In this document: piece after piece, positions 1,216-12,067 of the stretch
Position numbering within the stretch: the first letter of the stretch is position 1
Layout of the letters: every line of letters begins with the position of its first letter
NCBI GenBank assembly: GCA_937930465.1
Contig: CALGKV010000079.1
Coordinates: forward strand, 1-24,674
Source of the DNA: Methanosuratincolales archaeon
GTDB lineage: Archaea > Thermoproteota > Methanomethylicia > Methanomethylicales > Methanomethylicaceae
DNA: 24,674 nt
Direction: 5' to 3'
Translations under genes and position numbers: made by a program
The notes under the pieces: model-generated
What the model saw: only the letters and a program-made list of their open reading frames with translations
The model's database searches: none
What the model was told of the DNA's origin: nothing

Positions 1216-1403
1216 TCGGTAATGGATTCAGCGATAGGAAAATCACATAACGCAGGTAGATCCGGCGGCTTCTGAACCAGATTCCCCCGAAAGATTAGTG
1301 AGCCGAGGGTTATTGCCGAGAGCAGCAAATGAATCAATTGGAACTGTTGACGGTTTCCTGTGCGATGAAAATTCCAAGTGGCAAGAGGTCAAGCAGAATT
1401 GCC

Positions 1404-1417
1404 CAAAAAGCTTAATA
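1404..1417 (+). promoter_or_regulatory. Putative BRE+TATA promoter of the tkt-aro-phe-tyr operon
   Basis: CAAAAAG-CTTAATA resembles a purine-rich BRE plus TATA, predicting a TSS near 1440 and a ~210 nt 5' leader. Confidence 0.5.
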
Positions 1418-1457
1418 CGCTTGGCCACAGTGATAACCTTACAAAACGGTGGTTAAA

Positions 1458-1481
1458 GTGAGCCAATTCCAATATCTATAA
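1458..1481 (+). CDS. Candidate leader peptide MSQFQYL (uORF)
   Basis: GTG AGC CAA TTC CAA TAT CTA TAA, preceded by GGTGG (1448-1452) at 5 nt spacing. Confidence 0.3.
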   Translation: MSQFQYL

Positions 1482-1549
1482 CACGACTGGTCCCTTCTTG
1501 TTTAGACCAGTCGGTGCTCTCAGGCTCTGAGAGACTGAGTCCGGTTTTT
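1482..1549 (+). promoter_or_regulatory. Structured leader: alternative hairpins followed by T5
   Basis: Perfect 9-bp stem 1484-1492/1505-1513, perfect 7-bp stem 1517-1523/1527-1533, alternative pairing 1505-1511/1534-1541, and TTTTT at 1545-1549. Confidence 0.45.
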
Positions 1550-1650
1550 GGTATAGACGGAGTAAAGACGAAGGGCTCGGAAAAGACATTTGCACACAAG
1601 CAACACGCGGACACTGCGCCAGTGCGCCCTGATCTTGAGGTGCTTCATGT

Positions 1651-2508
1651 ATGAGCGGCACGGTCGAGCTGGCAGACCTAAAGCACTCTACCGACGTCCA
1701 GAAGGTGAAAGAGAGGATAAGGCAAGTCCAGCGCTCGCTCGTCGAGATGACCTCGTCTATGGGGGTGCACATCGGCTCCTCGCTCTCGTGCCTTGAGATC
1801 ATAGCTACGCTATACTTCCTGAAGATGCGGCACGCTCCGCATAGGCCACAGTGGCGGGAAAGGGACAAATTCATACTCAGCAAGGGGCACGCCGCGCCGG
1901 TGCTCTATGCTGTATTGGCAGAGGCGGGCTACTTCCCGAAGGAGGAGCTCCGAACCCTAAAGCGAATCAACTCCCGGCTGCAGGGCCACCCAGACCTGAG
2001 GACGCCAGGAGTTGACGCCCCATCAGGCTCGCTGGGTCAGGGGATCTCGATAGGCATCGGCATGGCTATGGCGGCGAAGATGCGCGGGAGCAGGAGCAGG
2101 GTCTACGTTCTTGTCGGCGATGGCGAGTGCGATGAGGGTCAGGTCTGGGAGTCGCTCATGACGGCAGCGCACCTCAGGCTGGACAACCTAGTCCTAATAA
2201 TAGACAGGAATGGCTGGCAGCTTGACGACAGGACGGAGGAGGTGAAGAGGAAGGTGCCGCTAAGGAGCAAGCTTGAGAGCTTCGGGTGGGAGACATACTC
2301 GATAAACGGGCACGACGTGGAGAAGATAGTCGAGGTCCTGGACGCCGCGGAGAGGGCGGAGCAGCCCGTGGCAATAATCGCCCACACAAAGAAGGGGAAG
2401 GGGATCTCTTTCCTAGAGGACTCGAACAAGGGGCACAAGCTGAAGCTGAGCGAGGACGAGTACCTGGCAGCGATCAAGGAGCTGGAGATGAGGGCAAAGT
2501 GCGCGTAG
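1651..2508 (+). CDS. tkt: Transketolase, N-terminal (TPP-binding) subunit
   Basis: HIGSSLS, DKFILSKGHAAP, LQGHPD, GSLGQG and the TPP motif GDGECDEGQVWE...IDRN. SD GAGGTG at 1637-1642. Confidence 0.95.
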   Translation: MSGTVELADLKHSTDVQKVKERIRQVQRSLVEMTSSMGVHIGSSLSCLEIIATLYFLKMRHAPHRPQWRERDKFILSKGHAAPVLYAVLAEAGYFPKEELRTLKRINSRLQGHPDLRTPGVDAPSGSLGQGISIGIGMAMAAKMRGSRSRVYVLVGDGECDEGQVWESLMTAAHLRLDNLVLIIDRNGWQLDDRTEEVKRKVPLRSKLESFGWETYSINGHDVEKIVEVLDAAERAEQPVAIIAHTKKGKGISFLEDSNKGHKLKLSEDEYLAAIKELEMRAKCA

Positions 2509-3410
2509 CGTTTGGGGAGGGGCTGCTCGAGCTGGGCAGCGAGAACGAGGACCTGGTGGTGCTGACGGCTGATGTCGCAAGGCCCACCCATGTAATAGGC
2601 TTCGGCGAGCGCTTCCCACACAGGTTCCTGGACGTCGGGATCGCGGAGCAGGACATGGTTGACATTGCTGCGGGGCTGGCCCTCAGCGAGAAGGTGCCCG
2701 TTGCAGTGGCGTTCGCTCCGTTCATGATGAGGGCATGGGAGCAGGTCAGGAGCACTATCGCAAGGTGCAGCCTGAACGTGAAGCTAGTGGGCACCCATGC
2801 CGGGCTTTCGGCGTCGGACGAGGGGGCGTCGCACCAGTCGCTAGAGGATGTTGCGCTGATGCGGGTGCTCCCCAACATGACCGTGGTCGTGCCAGGCGAT
2901 AGGGAGGAAGTCAAGGAGGCCACGCGTGCGATCGTCGAGAGCAAGGGGCCTGCCTACATGAGGATAGGCAGGGACGAGGATGCAAATTTCCTTCATGAAG
3001 GGTTCAGGCTAGGGAGGGCTACCGTGCTAAGAGATGGCTGCGACGTTGCCGTATTCTCCAACGGCTACATCACGTCGGAGGTGCTGGCTGCAGCTGAGGG
3101 GGCGCCCGTTGACGCAATGGTGGTCCATGTTCCGACTGTGAAGCCGCTGGACTCGGACACGGTAATCTCTGCTGTTAGGAGGACCGGGGCTGCCGTATGT
3201 GTGGAAGAGCACAGCATAATCGGGGGACTGGGCAGTGCCGTCTCGGAGCTGGTCTCCACAGAGTATCCGGTACACATAAGGAGGATGGGCGTCAGCGACA
3301 CTTTCGGCGAGTCCGGCACCTACAGGGAACTCCTGGATAAGCACCGCCTCAGCGCACCACACATCAGGGAGGCGATGGTAGAGGCAGCAAAAAGGAGGGG
3401 CAAGAGATGA
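2499..3410 (+). CDS. tkt: Transketolase, C-terminal subunit, 303 aa
   Basis: RVAFGEGL, DVGIAEQDMV, GTHAGLSASDEGASHQSLED, PAYMRIGR, VEEHSIIGGLGS. Start placed at GTG 2499, overlapping the upstream stop; the ORF-track 2286 start is a shadow extension. Confidence 0.93.
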   Translation: MRVAFGEGLLELGSENEDLVVLTADVARPTHVIGFGERFPHRFLDVGIAEQDMVDIAAGLALSEKVPVAVAFAPFMMRAWEQVRSTIARCSLNVKLVGTHAGLSASDEGASHQSLEDVALMRVLPNMTVVVPGDREEVKEATRAIVESKGPAYMRIGRDEDANFLHEGFRLGRATVLRDGCDVAVFSNGYITSEVLAAAEGAPVDAMVVHVPTVKPLDSDTVISAVRRTGAAVCVEEHSIIGGLGSAVSELVSTEYPVHIRRMGVSDTFGESGTYRELLDKHRLSAPHIREAMVEAAKRRGKR

Positions 3411-4387
3411 TCATTTTGCTTGAATTGGAATCAAAGCAACTGGAGGAAGCGCTCAGGGGAAGGTTTCGGAAGGTGAGGTACGGGGGAAAGGTAGCCTATG
3501 TCGCAACCCGGCAGGTCCCGGCAGAGATCCTAGACAGGCTGCACGGGGCAAGGATCGTTGACACAGGTAAACCGTACCAGCTGGCGAGCAGGGTCCTCCT
3601 GGAAGACGGCTCAAGGGTCAGGATAGGGGACGTGGAGTTCGGGGGCAAGGAGATCCAAGTCTGTGCTGGCCCTTGCGCTATCGAGAGCAGATCCCAGCTG
3701 CTGGAGGCGGCCCAGGCAGTAAAGGGCGCAGGGGCTTCGGTGCTCCGGGGAGGGGCGTTCAAGCCCAGGACTTCGCCGTACTCCTTCCAGGGCCTCGGAG
3801 AGGAGGGGTTGAGGCTTTTGAGGGAGGTGGCGGACGAGGTCGGCATGCCTGTTGTCACAGAGGCAACGACCCCAGAGCAGGTCCCTCTTGTTTCGGAGCA
3901 CTCTGACGCCATACAGATCGGGGCGAGGAACATGCAGAACTTCGAGCTCCTCAAGGCTGCGGGCAGATCCGGGAAACCCGTTCTGCTGAAGAGGGGGGCG
4001 TCCTCTACGATTGAGGAGTGGATCCTCGCAGCCGAGTACATACTTCTCGAAGGCAACTGGAACGTGATCCTTTGCGAGAGGGGGATCAAAAGCTTCGACA
4101 GCTCGACAAGGAATGTTCTGGACGTTGCAGCGATTGCGCTAGCGAAGGGGCTCACGCACCTGCCCGTCATCGCCGACCCGAGTCACGCAACAGGGAGGAG
4201 GGATCTGATCGCACCGGCTGCTATGGCTGCAGTTGCCGCAGGCGCGGACGGGCTCATCGTAGAGGTCCATCCCCGACCGGATGAGGCCCTTAGCGATGGG
4301 CCGCAGTCCCTCGATCCGAGTGGGTTCAGGAAGATGATGTCCGAGGTCGCCAAGGTCGCGAAGGCAACTGGAAGGGGTCTGGGTTGA
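3407..4387 (+). CDS. aroF: Type I-beta DAHP (DAH7P) synthase with short N-terminal ACT/ferredoxin-like extension
   Basis: AGPCAIES, RGGAFKPRTSPYSFQG, QIGARNMQN, LKRG, CERG, DPSH, EVHP. Confidence 0.95.
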   Translation: MIILLELESKQLEEALRGRFRKVRYGGKVAYVATRQVPAEILDRLHGARIVDTGKPYQLASRVLLEDGSRVRIGDVEFGGKEIQVCAGPCAIESRSQLLEAAQAVKGAGASVLRGGAFKPRTSPYSFQGLGEEGLRLLREVADEVGMPVVTEATTPEQVPLVSEHSDAIQIGARNMQNFELLKAAGRSGKPVLLKRGASSTIEEWILAAEYILLEGNWNVILCERGIKSFDSSTRNVLDVAAIALAKGLTHLPVIADPSHATGRRDLIAPAAMAAVAAGADGLIVEVHPRPDEALSDGPQSLDPSGFRKMMSEVAKVAKATGRGLG

Positions 4388-5472
4388 GGAAGATCGCAGT
4401 AAGTTGTGGGTGCCTCGAATACCCAGTCCTGATCGGTGCAGGGCTTCTTGGCACGGTCGGTGGAGCAGCCAAGGGACTCGCAGGGGACGGGAAGGTGGTG
4501 ATCATCACAGTACCTCCGGTCAGGGAGCTTTACCTTGAGAGCGTGGCAAGCAGCATGGACATTGAAGGGATCGAGCCTGTTGTCATAACCGTCCCGGACG
4601 GTGAGGAAGCCAAGACTCCCGAGACTTACCTATATGTTGTGGGCAGGATGCTGGACGCAGGGGCGGGCAGGGACTCGCTGGTCCTTTCCCTTGGAGGGGG
4701 GTGTGCAGGGGACCTCGCGGGGTTCGTAGCCTCGACATACATGCGCGGGGTCTCACTGGCGCACATCCCGACCACACTTCTAGCGCAGGTGGACAGCAGC
4801 ATAGGCGGCAAGAGCGCACTGAACCACCCAAGGGCTAAGAATCTAATAGGGAGCTTCCACCAGCCGAAGCTCGTCATCTCAGACACCCGGGTGCTCGCTA
4901 CATTGCCGACAAAAGAGCTGCGCTGCGGTCTAGCAGAGGTACTCAAGTACGGAGCCATACTTGACGGCGGACTCTTCCGGATTATCGAGCAGAGAGCTGG
5001 CGACATGCTGGCGCTAGAAGAAGGCGTGCTTGAGGATGTGATATGCAGATCGGCGGAGATCAAAGCCAGGGTCGTTTCGCTGGACGAAAAGGACAGGGGC
5101 GAGAGGATGCTGCTCAACTTCGGGCACACCGTTGGGCATGCCATAGAGGCGGCGACCTGCTACCGAAATTACAGCCACGGGGAGGCGGTAGCAATAGGGA
5201 TGTTGGCAGAGGCTAGGATCGCTGCGCAGCTCGGAATGATAAGCGATGGAACCGTGGACAGGATTGAGGCACTTGCCTCGCGGCTGGGGCTCCCGACGAG
5301 GGTCAAGGGTGTAACGGCGGAGGGGCTGATCGGGATCATGAAAGGCGACAAGAAAGCGGAGAGAGGAGAGATTAGGTTCGCGCTCCCGGACGCGATCGGT
5401 TCAGGCGCGGTGGTCGAGGTCAAGGACAGGGCATTGATAGAAGAGGCGATCAAGGGGGTGCTCGGCGATTAG
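4384..5472 (+). CDS. aroB: 3-dehydroquinate synthase
   Basis: GGGCAGDLAGF, PTTLLAQVDSSIGGK, KNLIG, AEVLKY, LNFGHTVGHAIE, HGEAVAIG. TTG start overlaps the aroF stop (TTGA). Confidence 0.96.
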   Translation: MRKIAVSCGCLEYPVLIGAGLLGTVGGAAKGLAGDGKVVIITVPPVRELYLESVASSMDIEGIEPVVITVPDGEEAKTPETYLYVVGRMLDAGAGRDSLVLSLGGGCAGDLAGFVASTYMRGVSLAHIPTTLLAQVDSSIGGKSALNHPRAKNLIGSFHQPKLVISDTRVLATLPTKELRCGLAEVLKYGAILDGGLFRIIEQRAGDMLALEEGVLEDVICRSAEIKARVVSLDEKDRGERMLLNFGHTVGHAIEAATCYRNYSHGEAVAIGMLAEARIAAQLGMISDGTVDRIEALASRLGLPTRVKGVTAEGLIGIMKGDKKAERGEIRFALPDAIGSGAVVEVKDRALIEEAIKGVLGD

Positions 5473-6154
5473 CGGCAGACCCTACAGGATATGCGCATCT
5501 GTGGTGGGCAAGGACGAGACGGAGATCGCAAGGGCAGCCCTGTCAGCCGAGGAGCTTGGCGCAGACCTCGTGGAGCTGAGGCTCGACACAGTTGAGGGGC
5601 TTGACCGAGAGAAGGTCAGGTCGGTTTTCAGGCTTGCTGCTGGCGTAGGCTTGCCAAAGATTGCGACGGTGATGCCTAGGAGCATATTTGGTGGCTTTGA
5701 AGGAAGCGCCGAGGAGCTCGGAGAGCTGCTACTCGAGGCTTCCAACCGTGCCGAATACGTCGACGTTGGGATTGAGTTGCTTGAAGGGCACGAAGGGATT
5801 TTAGAAAAGCTCTCGCAAAGGGCGAAAGTTGTGCTTTCCTGGCATGCAGACCGATTGCTATCGATCGATGAGATGAGGAGCTTCGTAAGGTCTTGGCGCA
5901 GGTGCAGCGTCTACAAGATTGCAATGCCCGCCAAGAGTGCCAGTGATAACTTGGTGGCTTTGCAAGGGTGCCTGGCTCTGGAGGGATTCAGGAGGGTCGT
6001 CTTCTGCTACGGCAGAGAAGGCATTCCTTCGAGGGTGATCTCTCCGGTCTTCGGATCGGAGTGGGCTTATGCCGCGCTCCGGAAGGGGCAGGAAACGGCG
6101 CCTGGGCAGATCGACATCGATATCCTCAGACGGATCAGGGGGGCGTTCGCTTGA
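5468..6154 (+). CDS. aroD: Type I 3-dehydroquinate dehydratase (start uncertain: ATT 5468 proposed, GTG 5501 is the first canonical codon)
   Basis: RICASV N-terminal strand, VELRLD, YVDV, SWH, YKIA (Schiff-base Lys), SRV, APGQ. Confidence 0.9.
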   Translation: MSGRPYRICASVVGKDETEIARAALSAEELGADLVELRLDTVEGLDREKVRSVFRLAAGVGLPKIATVMPRSIFGGFEGSAEELGELLLEASNRAEYVDVGIELLEGHEGILEKLSQRAKVVLSWHADRLLSIDEMRSFVRSWRRCSVYKIAMPAKSASDNLVALQGCLALEGFRRVVFCYGREGIPSRVISPVFGSEWAYAALRKGQETAPGQIDIDILRRIRGAFA

Positions 6155-7005
6155 CGACTAGCAGAACAAGGCTCTTCTGCCTGCTGGGGGATCCGGTCGA
6201 TCATTCGATCAGCCCACAGATCTTCACCAGGGCATTCGAGGCTTGCGGGATGGATGCGGCATATTTGGCTTTCAGAGTCCCTGGCAGTTCACTAGGCAAG
6301 GCGATCGCAGGCCTGAGGGCGCTCGGCGTGGCTGGGTGCAACGTGACGGTCCCGCACAAGATAGCAGTGATGAGCCATCTCGACTCATTGGACAGGGCAG
6401 CAATGGAGATCGGCGCGGCGAACGTGATCAAGATGGAAAATGGCATGGCTGTTGGCTACAATACGGACGGCGATGGGGCATTGATGGCTCTCAGAAGGAG
6501 CGATCTCTCGGGCAAGGTTGTTGCCTTGGTGGGCTACGGCGGCGCAGCCAGGGGGGTCGCCTATGCCATTGCATCATCAAAGGATCCGGGGGAGGTGGTG
6601 ATTTCAGGGAGGGATCGCGCGAAGGCAGAGTCGCTCGCCCAGCGGCTGGCGTCCCTCTTCGCGGTCAAGAGCAGATCCGTTAGCATTGAAGGGCTCAAGG
6701 AAGCCGCCCCAGATGTTCTGGTGAACGCGACCCCTCTTGGGATGAAGCCTTGGGTTGACAAATCCCCTGTGGATGCTGATGTCCTGCGCGCAGGGATGGT
6801 CGTGTTCGACCTTGTATACAACCCGACCGAAACCAGGCTGATCAAGGAGGCCAGGGCAATTGGCTGCACGACCATCGGGGGGTTGGACATGCTGGTAGGG
6901 CAGGCAGCTGCAGCTTTCGAGATCTGGACTGGAGAGAGGGCACCGTTGGAGGAGATGGAGAAGGCAGCATCGGAAGCCGTTGCAAAGGGGGGTGCAGGCG
7001 AATGA
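6151..7005 (+). CDS. aroE: Shikimate dehydrogenase, 284 aa
   Basis: LGDPVDHSISP, NVTVPHK, YNTDG, VNATPLGM, DLVYNP, GLDMLVGQA. TTG 6151 overlaps the aroD stop. Confidence 0.96.
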   Translation: MTTSRTRLFCLLGDPVDHSISPQIFTRAFEACGMDAAYLAFRVPGSSLGKAIAGLRALGVAGCNVTVPHKIAVMSHLDSLDRAAMEIGAANVIKMENGMAVGYNTDGDGALMALRRSDLSGKVVALVGYGGAARGVAYAIASSKDPGEVVISGRDRAKAESLAQRLASLFAVKSRSVSIEGLKEAAPDVLVNATPLGMKPWVDKSPVDADVLRAGMVVFDLVYNPTETRLIKEARAIGCTTIGGLDMLVGQAAAAFEIWTGERAPLEEMEKAASEAVAKGGAGE

Positions 7006-7868
7006 GGGGGACAGGCACGTCCTACGGCGCAGCAACAATAGTCAACGCGATGCCATCCGGTTTCGGCGGGGCGATCGGGGTCTGGCTCAAGGCAGTCGCT
7101 GAGGTGGAGATCACTGAAGACCCTGCGGTCGAGGCTGTTGCGGCAGACCAGGAGGTCGAGGATCTCTCTCTGATTTCCGAGTCATTCAAGGCTGTTACAT
7201 GTAGGTACGGGCTCGGCTGCGGGGCTAGGATCACCGTTCGCAGCGAGATACCCCCTGCAAGGGGGATGAAGAGCTCGAGCGCAGTATCGAATGCAGTAGT
7301 TCTGGCTACGCTGGACGCGCTCGGCATAGATTGCGGGGCGATGGAGGCTGTCCAGATGGGCGTGCAGGCCTCAATGAGGGCAGGCGTGACCGCCACTGGC
7401 GCGTTCGATGACTCCTGCGCAAGCCTCTTTGGCGGCGTGTTCTTAACAGACAACGCGGGGATGAAGGTCCTCAGGAGCTGGGATGCCGAGGAGCTGACAG
7501 CGCTATTCCTGGTCCCCGAGGAGAGGAGGTATTCGGGGAAGGTCGACTCGGAGCTTCTCCGGAGCTATGCGCGGGTGTCACTCATGGCTTTCAACGAGGC
7601 GATCGAGGGGAGAATCTGGCAGGCAATGCTCATCAATGGGATGGCAATGGCCCACGTCTTCGGGTTCGACGCCGGACCGATCCTGGAGGCGGTAAGGGAG
7701 GGGGCGGTATCGGCAGGCCTTTGCGGCAAGGGCCCGGCCATATGCGCGGTGACCAGGCCGGAATACGAGGGAGGGATCCTTGACTGCTGGAGGGGCAGAG
7801 GCTGCAAAACTATCAGGACCAAGATCAGGGGCTGCGCCGTATGCGGGGTGGACGAGCTTGGCAGGTAG
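7002..7868 (+). CDS. aroK: Archaeal (GHMP-family) shikimate kinase
   Basis: YGAATIVNA, SEIPPARGMKSSSA, TGAFDDSCAS, LCGKGPA. Confidence 0.93.
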   Translation: MRGTGTSYGAATIVNAMPSGFGGAIGVWLKAVAEVEITEDPAVEAVAADQEVEDLSLISESFKAVTCRYGLGCGARITVRSEIPPARGMKSSSAVSNAVVLATLDALGIDCGAMEAVQMGVQASMRAGVTATGAFDDSCASLFGGVFLTDNAGMKVLRSWDAEELTALFLVPEERRYSGKVDSELLRSYARVSLMAFNEAIEGRIWQAMLINGMAMAHVFGFDAGPILEAVREGAVSAGLCGKGPAICAVTRPEYEGGILDCWRGRGCKTIRTKIRGCAVCGVDELGR

Positions 7869-9156
7869 CAGGGCATTCGCGGTCGTGAGGGAGAGCGTGA
7901 TCGATGGGGCTGTCAGGGCACCCCCTTCAAAGAGTTTCACACAGAGGGCGGTGGCGTGCGCATTGATATCGGAGGGCAGGACCGAAATTTTGGGCCCTTC
8001 TACCTCGGACGACGGCAGGGTGGCAGCCAGGATCGCAAAAAGCTTGGGAGCGAGGATCAAGACAGGAAATGGGGGGTGGCTAGTGGATCCCCCGTCCAGA
8101 CCCGAGGCCCCTGAAGAGGTAGTAGACTGCGGCGGGTCGGCGACCTCAATGAGGATCTTCACCGCGATCGCGGCGCTTTCGGAGGGGGCGACCGTACTCA
8201 CAGGGGACGAGTCCCTCAGGAGGCGCCCTGTCGGCGAGCTTTTGGAGGCGATGAATGCGCTAGGCGCGAGGTGCTTCTCGACCAAGCACAACGGCCTACC
8301 TCCCGTAGTAGTGGAGGGGGGAGGGTTCAGGGGAGGAGATGTGTCGATCCGCGGGGACGTGAGCTCGCAGTACATCTCAGCGCTGATAGTTGCCTGCACA
8401 AGGGGGGATTCAGGGACCTCGATACAGGTGATCGGGAACCTGGAATCGTCAGACTATGTCAGGATGAGCATAGACGTCCTGAGGCAGTTCGGAGGGGCAG
8501 CTTTCCCAGACTTTGACGCCAAGAGATTCATAATCCCTGGAAGGCAGTCACTCAAGGGTTGCAGATTCGTCGTCGAGGGGGACTACTCCTCTGCTGCGTT
8601 CATAATCGCGGCTGGTGCGCTTGCAGGAAACGCCTCTGTCACCGGGCTCAACCCTAGAACGTCCCAGGGGGACCGGAGGCTGCTGGAAATAATCGGCAGG
8701 ATGGGCGGCACCGTGTCGGTCGAGGGCGGCGCCGTCACTTCGCTCCGCGATAGGCTCAGGGGGATCGAGGTAGACTGCTCGGAGGTGCCAGACCTAGTGC
8801 CGGTTCTGGGAGTGCTGGCCACTCAGGCAGAGGGGGTAACAGTTCTAAGGAAGACCGGCCGGCTCAGGATAAAGGAGAGCGACAGGGTGGAGGGCCTGGT
8901 GAGTATGATAAACAAGTTTGGGGGGATAGCCCGAGTAGATGGGCAGGACATCATAATAAAAGGCCCTACGCGCATGAACGGCACAGAGATCGATCCTAAG
9001 GGGGACCACAGGCTAGCAATGGCCGCTGCTGTAGCGGGGCTCATCGCAAAGGGCGAGACTGTGATCCATAATGCTGGGTGCGTTTCGAAGAGCTACCCCA
9101 GTTTCTTCTCGGATCTGAAAAGCCTAGGGGCGGGCGTAGAGGTGAGGATCGGATGA
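7858..9156 (+). CDS. aroA: 3-phosphoshikimate 1-carboxyvinyltransferase (EPSP synthase), 432 aa
   Basis: PPSKS, LRRRP, SSQYISAL, DYSSA, PDLVP, RIKESDR, DHRLAMA, KSYPSF. TTG 7858 has SD GGGGTG 7 nt upstream. Confidence 0.96.
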   Translation: MAGSRAFAVVRESVIDGAVRAPPSKSFTQRAVACALISEGRTEILGPSTSDDGRVAARIAKSLGARIKTGNGGWLVDPPSRPEAPEEVVDCGGSATSMRIFTAIAALSEGATVLTGDESLRRRPVGELLEAMNALGARCFSTKHNGLPPVVVEGGGFRGGDVSIRGDVSSQYISALIVACTRGDSGTSIQVIGNLESSDYVRMSIDVLRQFGGAAFPDFDAKRFIIPGRQSLKGCRFVVEGDYSSAAFIIAAGALAGNASVTGLNPRTSQGDRRLLEIIGRMGGTVSVEGGAVTSLRDRLRGIEVDCSEVPDLVPVLGVLATQAEGVTVLRKTGRLRIKESDRVEGLVSMINKFGGIARVDGQDIIIKGPTRMNGTEIDPKGDHRLAMAAAVAGLIAKGETVIHNAGCVSKSYPSFFSDLKSLGAGVEVRIG

Positions 9157-10256
9157 GCTTTGGGTTCGGCAAGGAATTCAGGGTGACGGTCTTCGGGGAG
9201 TCCCACGGCACTTGTGTCGGGGCGGTCGTCGAGGGATGCCCTGCAGGGCTCCCTTTGGAAGAGGGGGACATACAGCGCGAGCTCGACAGGCGCAAGCCAG
9301 GCGGGCGGCACTCGAGTGCAAGGGGCGAGCCGGACAGGATCAGGCTGATCAGCGGCATATGCGGCGGCAGGACCAATGGCGGCCCGATCACGATGCTGGT
9401 GGAGAACGAAGATGTGGACTCTTCGTGGTACGAAGAGAACAGGCACCTCCCGAGACCGGGCCACTCGGACTTCCCAGCATATGTGAAGTACGGCGGCATG
9501 AACGACTACAGGGGAGGCGGGTTTTTCTCAGGAAGGATGACCGCGCCCCTTGTCATGGGAGGGGCGGTGGCGAAGAGGCTGCTCTCAACTTTAGGAGTCA
9601 AGGTCATCGGCCACATCGTGCAGATCGGGAGGATCAGGCTATTGGAGCAGGTGAGCGACCAGGCAATAGAGGCTGCAACTTTGAGAGGCGCAATATGCGC
9701 GGACACGGGAACCGCAAGGGAATTTGAGGGCGAGATCGACAGGGTTGCCAAGGAAGGCGATTCGGTCGGCGGGGTTGTCGAATGCAGGGTACTCAACTTG
9801 CCAACGGGAGTCGGGGAGCCCTTCTTCGATTCGGTTGAGAGCACCATAGCGCACGGGGTCTTCAGTATCCCCGGGGTAAAGGGGGTGGAGTTTGGAGCAG
9901 GGTTCGGCTTCGCATCGATGAGGGGATCAGAGGCAAACGATACCATCGTCGCCAGGGACGGCAAGTTTGAGACGGAGACGAACAGGTCTGGCGGGGTGCA
10001 GGGGGGTCTAACCACGGGTATGCCGCTCTTGTTCAGGGTCGCCGTGAAGCCAACGCCTTCAATAAGGAAGGAGCAGAGGACAGTCGACATGAGGACGATG
10101 CAGGAGGCGACCATAAAAGTAGGCGGCAGGCACGACCCGTGCATAGCGGTGAGGGCTGTCCCGGTGGTCGAGGCGGTCGCCGCGGTCTGCATTGCGGACC
10201 TGATGGCAAGGGACGGAAAGATACCGAGGAGGATTGGTGGTAAGATTGGGAATTGA
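9153..10256 (+). CDS. aroC: Chorismate synthase, 367 aa
   Basis: FGESHG, RRKPG, RPGHSD, GGVQGG, RHDPC. ATG 9153 has SD GAGGTGA and an ATGA overlap with aroA. Confidence 0.97.
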   Translation: MSFGFGKEFRVTVFGESHGTCVGAVVEGCPAGLPLEEGDIQRELDRRKPGGRHSSARGEPDRIRLISGICGGRTNGGPITMLVENEDVDSSWYEENRHLPRPGHSDFPAYVKYGGMNDYRGGGFFSGRMTAPLVMGGAVAKRLLSTLGVKVIGHIVQIGRIRLLEQVSDQAIEAATLRGAICADTGTAREFEGEIDRVAKEGDSVGGVVECRVLNLPTGVGEPFFDSVESTIAHGVFSIPGVKGVEFGAGFGFASMRGSEANDTIVARDGKFETETNRSGGVQGGLTTGMPLLFRVAVKPTPSIRKEQRTVDMRTMQEATIKVGGRHDPCIAVRAVPVVEAVAAVCIADLMARDGKIPRRIGGKIGN

Positions 10257-11304
10257 GGAGATCAGGAAAGAGATAGACAAGATAGACGAGGAGATAGTGA
10301 GACTGCTGAACGAGAGGGTGGCGGCGTGCAAGAAGGCAGGCGTAGCCAAGGGAGGGATCGATATATTTGACGTGGACCGCGAAAGGAGGGTCTTGGAGAG
10401 AGTCGCATCCAGATCCGAGGAGGCCCCTATTGAGGGGGTACGTGCGGTCTACAGGGAAGTCATCTCGATGTGCCGCAGGGTCCAGAGGCCGATCACAGTC
10501 GCTTTCTTGGGGCCTGAGGGAAGCTTCTCCCACGAGGTGGCTTCTAAGCACTTCGGAACATCCTCGAAGCTTCTGCCGAGCAGAAGGATAAGGAACATCT
10601 TCACAGAAGTCGATCTTGGGGGGGCGGACTTAGGGGTTGTGCCATTCGAGAACTCGATCGAGGGCGCTGTCAATGACACCTTGGACTGCTTCGTCGAGTA
10701 CCCGGTCTCGATAGTCGGCGAGGCCCTCTTCAGGATCAACCAGAACCTGATCGTGGACCCAGAGGTGACCGCGCTCAGCCAGATAGAGAGGGTCTATTCT
10801 CACCCTCAAGCGCTTGCCCAGTGCGACGGCTACATCACGAAGCACCTTAACGACAAGGAGATCGTCGTCACCGAGTCGACAGCCAGGGCCGTGGAGCACA
10901 TCCTGAGGGACCCGAAGGGGGCAGCCATCGGCAGCAAGGTGGCTGCAGAGCTCAACGATCTGAAGATCTTCGAGGCAGGTATCGAGGACTCGCCAAACAA
11001 CTACACAAGGTTCGTCGTGATAAAGAAGGGGGGTGTTGCCGAGGGAGGGAACAAGACATCGCTGATACTCTCAATAGATCACGTCCCCGGATCTCTGGCT
11101 GCGGTGCTTAACTGCTTTGCTAAGAACGGAATCAATGTGACCATGATACTCTCGAGGCCGCTCTACATGAAGCCATGGGAGTACCTCTTCTTCATTGATT
11201 TTGAAGGGAATCTAGGTGATGAGAAATGCAGGAATGCAATGGAGGAACTAAAGAAGAAGACGAGGTTCCTGAGGATACTAGGAAGTTACTCAGAGTTGCT
11301 GTGA
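10234..11304 (+). CDS. pheA: Chorismate mutase / prephenate dehydratase with ACT domain
   Basis: AroQ-type N-terminus (IRKEIDKIDEEIVRLLNER), LGPEGSFSH, PFENSIEG, SHPQALAQC, NYTRF, C-terminal ACT domain. Start could be TTG 10234, GTG 10237 or TTG 10246. Confidence 0.95.
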   Translation: MVVRLGIEEIRKEIDKIDEEIVRLLNERVAACKKAGVAKGGIDIFDVDRERRVLERVASRSEEAPIEGVRAVYREVISMCRRVQRPITVAFLGPEGSFSHEVASKHFGTSSKLLPSRRIRNIFTEVDLGGADLGVVPFENSIEGAVNDTLDCFVEYPVSIVGEALFRINQNLIVDPEVTALSQIERVYSHPQALAQCDGYITKHLNDKEIVVTESTARAVEHILRDPKGAAIGSKVAAELNDLKIFEAGIEDSPNNYTRFVVIKKGGVAEGGNKTSLILSIDHVPGSLAAVLNCFAKNGINVTMILSRPLYMKPWEYLFFIDFEGNLGDEKCRNAMEELKKKTRFLRILGSYSELL

Positions 11305-12017
11305 TTGGGACCGGGAAGATGGGGAGGTGCCTCTCCACACTGCTCAGGGATCAAGCCGATGTAACGCTGCACAGCAGGGATCTCAGGAAGGGAAGGGCGA
11401 TAGCCAAGAGGGTCGGGGTGTGCAGTTCAGAAATCAAAGCGATCTCGGAGAGCGACGTGGTGATAGCCACGATGCCGACCGGGGCAATCCCAGGATTCCT
11501 AGAGGAGTCTGCAGGAAGCATGCGCCCCGGCGCAGCCTTCGTAGATGTCTCGTCCGTTAAATGTGGAGTGGTAGAGGAGGTCCTAAAGAGGCTGCCGGAA
11601 TGGGTCGGGTACGTCAGCATCCATCCGCTCTTCACCTCGCCCAAGGTGAAGGAAAAGGACGTGGCATTCATCCCAGTCAGGGGCACGGCGAACGTTTATA
11701 GGTTCTTGGAAACCCTCTCGAGGTCAGGGATGCGCCTATTCGAGACTTCCTCCGAAGAGCACGATCGTGCCACAGCCATAACGCAGGTGCTCCACCACTT
11801 TGCGCTGCTCACGATGGATAAGGTGCTCCAAAGGCACATGAGTTCCTCGGAAAAATTCACGACTCACAGCCTTAGGAAGACGCTGGCAGTGATGAGGCTG
11901 GTCAAGGGCAACCGCGACACAGCGGTAATGATCCAAAGGCTGAACAAATTCGGGAAGAGCATCAGAATGGAGTACATAAAGGAAGCCGAGGCGCTGGACC
12001 GAGAGTTGTCAGATTGA
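11226..12017 (+). CDS. tyrA: Prephenate/arogenate dehydrogenase (TyrA family)
   Basis: Rossmann motif RVAVIGTGKMG, DVSSVK, HPLF, EEHDR, QVLHHF. Start uncertain (ATG 11226 vs GTG 11301). Confidence 0.88.
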   Translation: MQECNGGTKEEDEVPEDTRKLLRVAVIGTGKMGRCLSTLLRDQADVTLHSRDLRKGRAIAKRVGVCSSEIKAISESDVVIATMPTGAIPGFLEESAGSMRPGAAFVDVSSVKCGVVEEVLKRLPEWVGYVSIHPLFTSPKVKEKDVAFIPVRGTANVYRFLETLSRSGMRLFETSSEEHDRATAITQVLHHFALLTMDKVLQRHMSSSEKFTTHSLRKTLAVMRLVKGNRDTAVMIQRLNKFGKSIRMEYIKEAEALDRELSD

Positions 12018-12050: not shown

Positions 12051-12067
12051 TTTTTTGCCCCTTTTTT
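12051..12067 (+). terminator. Tandem oligo-T tracts ending the aromatic operon
   Basis: TTTTTT at 12051-12056 and 12062-12067, 33-50 nt after the tyrA stop. Confidence 0.6.

Follow-up and report, generated by a model that had tools for sequence, protein, structure and literature searches.

The stretch of DNA analysed here (the window, 24,674 nt of contig CALGKV010000079.1) comes from an uncultured Methanosuratincolales archaeon, represented by a 1.0-Mb genome bin that is 74% complete and has a GC content of 54%. On its + strand, an operon of 11 genes (1651-12017) for the synthesis of phenylalanine (Phe) and tyrosine (Tyr), which begins with the transketolase gene tkt, is preceded by a gap of 435 nt, and it is the leader lying in this gap, hereafter the aro leader, that is the subject of the present study. 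The leader carries a predicted promoter, a Shine-Dalgarno (SD) sequence, a short open reading frame (ORF) of seven codons (frame 0), two hairpins and a second, longer ORF in the -1 frame that runs into the start of tkt (Table 1). We propose, with a probability of about 0.5, that positions 1448-1654 form a programmed -1 frameshift recoding cassette heading the Phe/Tyr operon, a proposal built on the comparison of sequences. In what follows, G-numbers label genomes, L-numbers label loci and P0001-P0003 are public proteins; the host family is the family of the source archaeon, and counts of leaders use 22, 23 or 27 sequences, as given in each case.

The short ORF is near-invariant at the nucleotide level across the leaders of the host family. 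It occurs once per genome in 19 of the 62 genomes of the class, which are exactly the 19 that possess a split transketolase, and the 13 family members devoid of the short ORF are devoid of the split transketolase as well. All 19 family genomes carrying the operon share the SD sequence GGTGG, the GTG start and a stop at codon 8; the type of this stop, which is retained in every leader, varies among TAA, TAG and TGA, and the codon that creates it reads xUA or xUG in every case, with a purine next to it. The encoded peptide has one Phe and one Tyr codon with a glutamine (Gln) codon between them, a conservation that is equally explained by the isoleucine (Ile) codons of the -1 frame. When the source genome (74% complete) was screened for the combination of a TATA box, an SD sequence and a short ORF, the aro leader alone was retrieved, and a search of the genome for a pairing partner of the invariant short-ORF sequence gave chance-level matches only. 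A pattern scan of the genome contigs likewise returned one chance match, a metagenome scan returned mostly chance matches, from which five true loci were retained, and an exact-protein look-up for L156 found no match.

The evidence that a second frame is used comes from the -1 ORF. It is open in 22 of 22 orthologous leaders, over 38 to 72 codons, and the stops summed over these leaders amount to two in the -1 frame (both terminal) as against 72 in frame 0 and 74 in the +1 frame. Between the EPIPIS motif and the first canonical in-frame start, one stop is found in the -1 frame and 46 and 34 in the other two. This frame has no canonical start at its 5' end: the first one in the window is GTG 1514, four leaders have none throughout the -1 ORF, and 23 of the 27 sequences have none upstream, the frame being closed 0-2 codons upstream in 10 sequences; in the host genus a TAA closes it two codons before the first proline (Pro) codon. 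Differences in leader length, indels included, are mostly frame-keeping (19 of 22 leaders are in the same phase), and in 16-17 of the 22 leaders the -1 stop and the start of tkt share nucleotides as NTGA. A 24-nt tandem duplication seen in the leader L030 (G006) keeps the -1 frame and adds eight codons to it (STENTTDK twice). What looks like an exchange of Phe and Tyr in the short ORF of G023 merely swaps one Ile codon for another (ATT/ATA) when read in the -1 frame, and a TCT/TCG change is synonymous there as well. Minority codons are used despite the usage of the genome (CAA 22%, TAT 29%, CCA 21%), and ATC, the commonest Ile codon, never appears. The -1 ORF overlaps the frame-0 ORF without having an initiation codon of its own, and the same is true in seven other lineages. 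The leader region is, evidently, an open and translated -1 frame, and two frames under selection at once are, as judged from these alignments, the signature of recoding. Comparison among leaders establishes the selection on two frames, the missing -1 start and the overlap with tkt, together with the conservation and placement of the hairpins described below; from there we infer the slip itself, the role of the hairpin as a stimulator and the sensing of amino acids.

A preliminary description of this locus had located two hairpins, A:B and hairpin 2, along with a third segment C, a CGG triplet and a run of five T (T5), behind the short ORF with its stop at 1479-1481 and its Phe codon at 1467-1469, and all of these are present where it placed them. 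Both A:B and hairpin 2 are genuine selected RNA structures of the + strand, conserved and with compensatory changes, and they are tied, as had been claimed, to an SD-led short ORF that has one Phe and one Tyr codon, ends 2 nt upstream of them and stands before an operon making these two amino acids. A:B is 98.6% paired across the genus alignment, and 5 of its 9 pairs have changed on both sides; the G-U pairs among them show that the structure forms in the RNA of the + strand. Hairpin 2 is 91% paired with both-side changes at 2 of 7 pairs, those in G007 being synonymous in the -1 frame too. The energies predicted at 37 °C are -15.0 kcal/mol for A:B, -9.1 kcal/mol for hairpin 2 and -24.1 kcal/mol for the two together, a combination that is also the unconstrained minimum free energy (MFE) fold. 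Among related leaders, 18 of 23 have a hairpin of -10 kcal/mol or lower starting 0-2 nt after the stop, vs 9% of random genomic 45-mers; the hairpin sequences are wholly different between genera and their position is kept. The spacer from codon 6 to the stem measures 6-8 nt in 20 of 22 family leaders, within the 5-9 nt published for stimulators of -1 frameshifting (PMC8211752). The hairpins are thus real, but they lie inside a hidden frame that can apparently be reached only by a -1 slip at the Phe or the Tyr codon. Over the whole 435-nt intergenic region the predicted fold is not unusually stable on either strand (z -1.0 and -0.3), and the Rfam covariance models gave no match in 1150-1720, either at gathering thresholds or at a permissive E of up to 10. 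By eye, the pyrimidine-rich loop of A:B (1493-1504, CCUUCUUG...) is complementary to the purine-rich segment 1558-1590, 65-85 nt downstream, here and in related leaders, which could be a long-range pseudoknot or a mere effect of composition.

Table 1. Features of the aro leader and operon in the window, followed by the frame-0 ORFs that precede a long -1 ORF in other lineages
Feature	Position (strand)	Sequence or content	Remarks
Promoter	1399..1418 (+)	TTGCCCA motif, then B recognition element (BRE)/TATA (CCAAAAAGCTTAATAC)	Position and sequence kept across at least 6 genera of the host family
Shine-Dalgarno sequence	1448..1452 (+)	GGTGG	5 nt 5' of GTG start, 10 nt 5' of first C-CAA site; invariant in all genome matches
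Frame-0 short ORF	1458..1481 (+)	GTG AGC CAA TTC CAA TAT CTA TAA (MSQFQYL, stop)	7 codons, SD-led
-1-frame ORF	1460..1654 (+)	EPIPISITRLVPSCLDQSVLSG...	Closed upstream by TAA 1454-1456; stop TGA 1652-1654 overlaps tkt ATG 1651 as ATGA
Candidate -1 shift sites	1463..1475 (+)	C-CAA-UUC (1463-1469), C-CAA-UAU (1469-1475); -1 reading CCA-AUU, CCA-AUA (Pro-Ile)	Nucleotides invariant; putative function
Hairpin A:B	1484..1513 (+)	Perfect 9-bp stem (1484-1492 with 1505-1513), 12-nt pyrimidine-rich loop; A = GACTGGTC (1485-1492), B = GACCAGTC (1505-1512)	Starts 8 nt after Tyr codon, 2 nt after stop of short ORF
Hairpin 2	1517..1533 (+)	Perfect 7-bp stem CTCTCAG (1517-1523)/CTGAGAG (1527-1533), 3-nt loop	Genus-specific
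Segment C	1534..1541 (+)	Near copy of A (GACTG-A-GTC)	Pairs with B over 7 bp, A1538 bulged
T5 tract	1545..1549 (+)	TTTTT, CGG just 5'	Possible weak archaeal U-tract terminator; reads GTT TTT (Val-Phe) in -1 frame
tkt ribosome-binding region	1637..1653 (+)	GAGGTG, then ATG 1651	
aro/phe/tyr operon	1651..12017 (+)	Split transketolase N + C, DAHP synthase, aroB, aroD, aroE, GHMP-type shikimate kinase, aroA, aroC, pheA (CM-PDT-ACT), tyrA	Basis: Pfam matches
Frame-0 ORF, G031		MESQYQF...	
Frame-0 ORF, G028		MNSQYQF...	
Frame-0 ORF, G057		MHQYLWKTSQRQFNSRQ, stop	
Frame-0 ORF, G324		MVSQFQYAKTSWNAS, stop	
Frame-0 ORF, G312		MKHQYSSQVT, stop	
Frame-0 ORF, G247		MPRQY, stop	

The preliminary description had gone further and read the leader as a ribosome-mediated transcription attenuator, in which a ribosome at the stop of the short ORF would mask A, so that the pairing of B with C extends hairpin 2 into a terminator before T5, and a ribosome stalled at the Phe codon would keep A:B and allow read-through. 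The window sequence does contain these pairings, segment C is a near copy of A, the extended stem ends 4 nt before the T tract and, once A is masked, B:C is worth about -5.7 kcal/mol on top of hairpin 2; moreover, T5 runs mark transcript ends in the source genome, where runs of five or more T are enriched after long ORFs (20% vs 1.6%), and T5 may still act there as a weak stop. However, B:C does not stack directly on the 7-bp stem as had been supposed, since the unpaired C1512-G1516 lies between them, and the fold with B:C and hairpin 2 reaches -14.8 kcal/mol vs the -24.1 kcal/mol of A:B with hairpin 2; when A is masked, the MFE fold takes another register, and an alternative register overlaps B by only 3 nt. 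Across the genus alignment, B:C is 73% paired; at 6 of its 7 pairs every departure is a break, and no convincing compensatory change is seen. Uncompensated mutations of C are present in 3 of 5 close relatives, and the B:C complementarity is largely lost in two divergent members of the genus (G001 and G004) and is not seen in other genera. Of the two pairings that would have to exclude each other, then, A:B covaries and B:C does not, and it is this missing covariation of B:C in orthologues, named beforehand as an outcome that would overturn the B:C/T5 attenuator, that makes it fail. The terminator fares no better, T5 being found in 4 of 22 leaders and 6 of 22 being devoid of any T4, and a terminator scan returned no terminator-like site in the leader; termination in archaea depends on aCPSF1 and on runs of 4-7 U, and a hairpin is not required (PMC8716108). 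Lastly, the switch needs an untranslated leader, and the supposed switch region is instead the open -1 frame coupled to tkt. What survives of the original reading is therefore A:B, hairpin 2, their link with the short ORF and its Phe and Tyr codons, and what falls is the switch, the terminator and the untranslated leader. As far as comparative analysis can tell, the evidence points to a frameshift-based amino-acid sensor rather than to a terminator switch of the bacterial style.

Sequestration of a downstream SD sequence, of the ermC/cat type, was tried as a separate candidate and rejected: in 22 leaders, the tkt SD and start are predicted to be unpaired with the same probability whether or not the short ORF and arm A are masked. 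The tkt SD lies 78-193 nt from the hairpin.

Further support for the use of two frames comes from outside the host family. A phylum-wide pattern search retrieved, in a distant genome, the same nucleotides, CCAATTCCAATA, reading Pro-Ile-Pro-Ile at the start of a long ORF that encodes a winged-helix-like domain fused to transketolase-N. The layout recurs in at least seven other archaeal lineages (G031/G028, G057, G324, G312, G247 and, from metagenomes, L185 and L186). In each, frame 0 opens with an SD-led ATG or GTG and has one or two C-CAA-UUY or C-CAA-UAY sites among its first codons, while the long -1 ORF starts with (x)PIPI(S) or a close variant and is closed just upstream, in G028 by a TAG immediately 5' of the first Pro codon. 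The L185 locus has an in-frame ATG before PIPIS, though this ATG may precede the point where the transcript begins. For five of the lineages (G031/G028, G057, G324, G312 and L186) the -1 ORF codes for a winged-helix-like domain joined to transketolase, and frameshifting would be the only route to the domain-fused enzyme; the host family has lost this domain, translation through to tkt being what remains. Three public domain-fused transketolases (P0001-P0003) have inconsistent starts, which fall either in the promoter region or within the N-terminal domain, inside its first helix, and this suggests that gene callers mishandle the missing start. A natural control is provided by G010 (L018), a member of the host family where the -1 ORF has an in-frame ATG about 110 nt upstream of the cassette, overlapping the stop of the upstream gene (TAATG): there, the hairpin and the promoter are lost and the short ORF is still intact.

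Two observations were made on related winged-helix genes. In the complete 1.8-Mb genome G247, which belongs to another family, the frame-0 MPRQY ORF and the -1 winged-helix ORF (L184, 6265-8083, - strand) precede and overlap a Beta_elim_lyase gene of the tyrosine phenol-lyase/tryptophanase family, an aromatic amino-acid context with a catabolic-type enzyme. In the host family and in f6, paralogous stand-alone winged-helix genes (L170-L181, e.g. L176 at about 1380-1500) have an SD-led upstream ORF of the form M..KGV(C/Y/H)LF(K/E).. ending in a stop, and a long +1-frame ORF that crosses a conserved CUU-UUC-A, a sequence similar to the CUU-U +1 site of release factor 2 (RF2) with a Phe codon in the A site; this long frame also has an in-frame GTG, so that recoding is not strictly required.

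If positions 1448-1654 are a frameshift cassette, ribosomes would start at the SD-led GTG 1458, and most of them would read MSQFQYL and stop at the UAA just before A:B, leaving the leader bare. A fraction would slip back by one base, with CAA and its tRNA-Gln in the P site and Phe (UUC) or Tyr (UAU) still awaited in the A site, and would enter the -1 frame at CCA-AUU or CCA-AUA. The slip would be promoted by hairpin A:B, 8 nt after the Tyr codon, and by the SD/anti-SD helix, which precedes the first site by 10 nt. Shifted ribosomes would translate the whole 64-codon leader, melt both hairpins and cover T5, and their termination at the ATGA overlap would couple translation of the operon to that of the leader and probably protect transcription. 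When charged tRNA-Phe or tRNA-Tyr is in short supply, the shift should become more frequent and the operon should be switched up, because the slow A-site codons encode the end products of the operon. We take these to be Phe and Tyr since tryptophan synthase alpha (TrpA, PF00290) was not found in five genomes of the family (G000, G002, G005, G018 and G012), four of which are 95-97% complete; the host family may be auxotrophic for tryptophan while making Phe and Tyr. Slippage of a single tRNA in the P site next to a vacant A site is described for conditions in which aminoacyl-tRNA is limiting (PMC8211752), and the sensing of Phe and Tyr would therefore be a natural consequence. That the leader is a natural hungry-codon sensor, in which an empty A site at C-CAA-UUC or C-CAA-UAU lets peptidyl-tRNA-Gln slip by -1 and the long frame is made only then, is a more tentative proposal than the cassette as such, and one we would not yet favour over its negation.

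Several facts speak against a frameshift cassette. The sites do not have the slippery X-XXY-YYZ form, and tRNA-Gln would re-pair with CCA at positions 1 and 3 only; tkt has an SD sequence of its own, so that coupling is not strictly required; and a single Phe and a single Tyr codon make a small number for a starvation sensor. Beyond about 27 residues, the -1 peptide evolves almost freely, which means that any function would lie in the act of translation and not in the product. Three family members (G010, G023 and G050) have no hairpin, and in the other families with the two-frame layout no strong hairpin was found after the site, so that the stimulator spacing seen in the host family has no counterpart there. 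Finally, the cassette of G247 precedes a beta-eliminating lyase, which simple starvation logic fits less well.

Among the other explanations, the one that survives best has the -1 ORF translated without any frameshift, either from a near-cognate start (AUU 1466 or AUA 1472) or by termination-reinitiation at a codon overlapping the stop (AUA-A, UUG-A), with the short ORF as a competing regulatory upstream ORF and the hairpin holding or slowing ribosomes at the stop. The frame-0 stop indeed overlaps a -1 GUG or UUG in G312 and G247 (GUGA or UUGA) and in G019 (UUGA); the in-frame GTG of the paralogous stand-alone winged-helix genes lies inside the upstream ORF, and therefore occlusion by such an ORF without recoding exists in the gene family; and a non-canonical ATT start for aroD (5454-5503) had been proposed in the initial sequence reading of the same window. 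Yet the SD sequence lies 13-19 nt from AUU/AUA, which is too far, and a canonical start is found at the stop overlap in only 1 of 23 family leaders, the others having AUA, UUA or CUA. Furthermore, in G031, G028, G057 and G324 the frame-0 stop falls 10-18 codons downstream with no start nearby, and a product of reinitiation would be missing both the conserved N-terminus and some of the first helix. Both termination-reinitiation and initiation at AUU/AUA consequently rank below frameshifting, and we regard them as unlikely.

The hairpins could also be elements of mRNA stability, processing or protein binding that act apart from decoding, the short ORF and the -1 ORF being handled independently. 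A sequence that differs between genera at a kept position is what would be expected of a purely structural element, and the other families have the two-frame layout without the hairpin. On the other hand, in 20 of 22 leaders the hairpin is fixed 0-2 nt from the stop, a position that leaves 6-8 nt to the candidate shift site, and it is lost precisely in G010, where the -1 ORF gained a normal start; we consider a purely structural role quite improbable. The transcription attenuator, given the behaviour of B:C and of T5 described above, is the least probable explanation of all.

Upstream of the cassette, the transcription start is predicted near 1440 from the usual archaeal spacing between TATA and start. 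Equivalents of the TTGCCCA/TATA arrangement are present in two other lineages carrying the same cassette, and the motif (TTGCCCA, or TTGTCCA, CTGCCCA) stands directly 5' of the BRE/TATA both at 1399-1405 and in the regions upstream of L158, L159 and L185; a transcription factor may bind it, perhaps the winged-helix protein itself. No conserved TATA-like element that could serve as a second promoter was found between T5 and tkt in the leader alignment, and an independent small RNA is therefore unlikely. At the far end of the operon, two T6 runs at 12051-12067, 34-50 nt past the tyrA stop and without an obvious hairpin, make a typical archaeal operon terminator.

To our knowledge, ribosome-based sensing of amino acids is established only in bacteria. 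The Crenarchaeota/Thermoproteota are largely devoid of Tar and TrpY, the known aro regulators, and for crenarchaeal aro operons a third regulator or mechanism has been suggested (PMC6737238); the hungry-codon sensor, if confirmed, would be a candidate for it. Starvation-induced frameshifting would, with such a sensor, be seen for the first time in a natural regulatory role; a 2016 review stated, on hungry-codon shifting for starvation-specific trans-frame products, that "no examples are known" (PMC5009743). Likewise, the sensor would represent conserved -1 recoding in archaeal cellular genes across several families of Methanomethylicia and other Thermoproteota, the long frame being a translated leader coupled to the aro operon in the host family and a winged-helix-like/transketolase fusion in sister lineages. 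The two-frame layout is conserved and easily recognised, and has a practical bearing on the inconsistent public starts of transketolase-fusion genes in related archaea.

Among known systems, the aro leader resembles the -1 cassettes of Escherichia coli dnaX and of IS3-family orfA-orfB in having a frame-0 ORF, a downstream -1 ORF without a start of its own and a frame-0 stop soon after the site. An SD-like element of the dnaX type reportedly lies about 10 nt upstream of the shift site (Larsen et al., in 1994), and the SD of the aro leader likewise stands 10 nt before its first site. The stem-loop 5-9 nt after the shift site is shared as well (spacer rule, PMC8211752). Unlike these cassettes, the aro leader has C-CAA-UWY in place of X-XXY-YYZ, its shift would occur only 2-5 codons after initiation, so that the initiation SD would double as the upstream stimulator, and the product in the host family is a poorly conserved leader peptide and not a second enzyme. 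In ketolide-induced frameshifting of the ermC leader, ribosomes that have changed frame in a short leader ORF also run into the spacer, open the mRNA and switch on the downstream gene (PMC5009743), but the signal there is a ribosome-bound drug, whereas in the archaeal leader it would be the charging of tRNA-Phe and tRNA-Tyr; in addition, the shifted frame of the aro leader is open up to the ATGA overlap with the next gene, and no downstream SD sequestration is predicted.

With the enterobacterial pheL and trpL attenuators the aro leader shares a short SD-led leader ORF containing codons for the end products, a hairpin beside its stop and the ribosome as the sensor. It differs from them by having neither conserved alternative hairpins nor a conserved hairpin-plus-U terminator, one Phe and one Tyr codon in place of runs of regulatory codons, and a translated downstream leader; frameshifting in pheL itself is regarded as incidental (PMC3082878, PMC5009743). 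The +1 shifts of prfB (RF2) and antizyme offer another parallel, in that their rate is set by the slowness of A-site filling and the shift is sensor and effector at once, but the proposed shift is -1 and would sense aminoacyl-tRNA, not a release factor or polyamines. The closest archaeal precedent is fucA1 of Saccharolobus solfataricus, the only archaeal cellular -1 frameshift reported as demonstrated, which has a putative stem-loop too (PMC8211752). There, a classical A-AAA-AAT site lies within a single enzyme gene of one species group, whereas the layout described here spans several families and stands at the 5' end of an operon.

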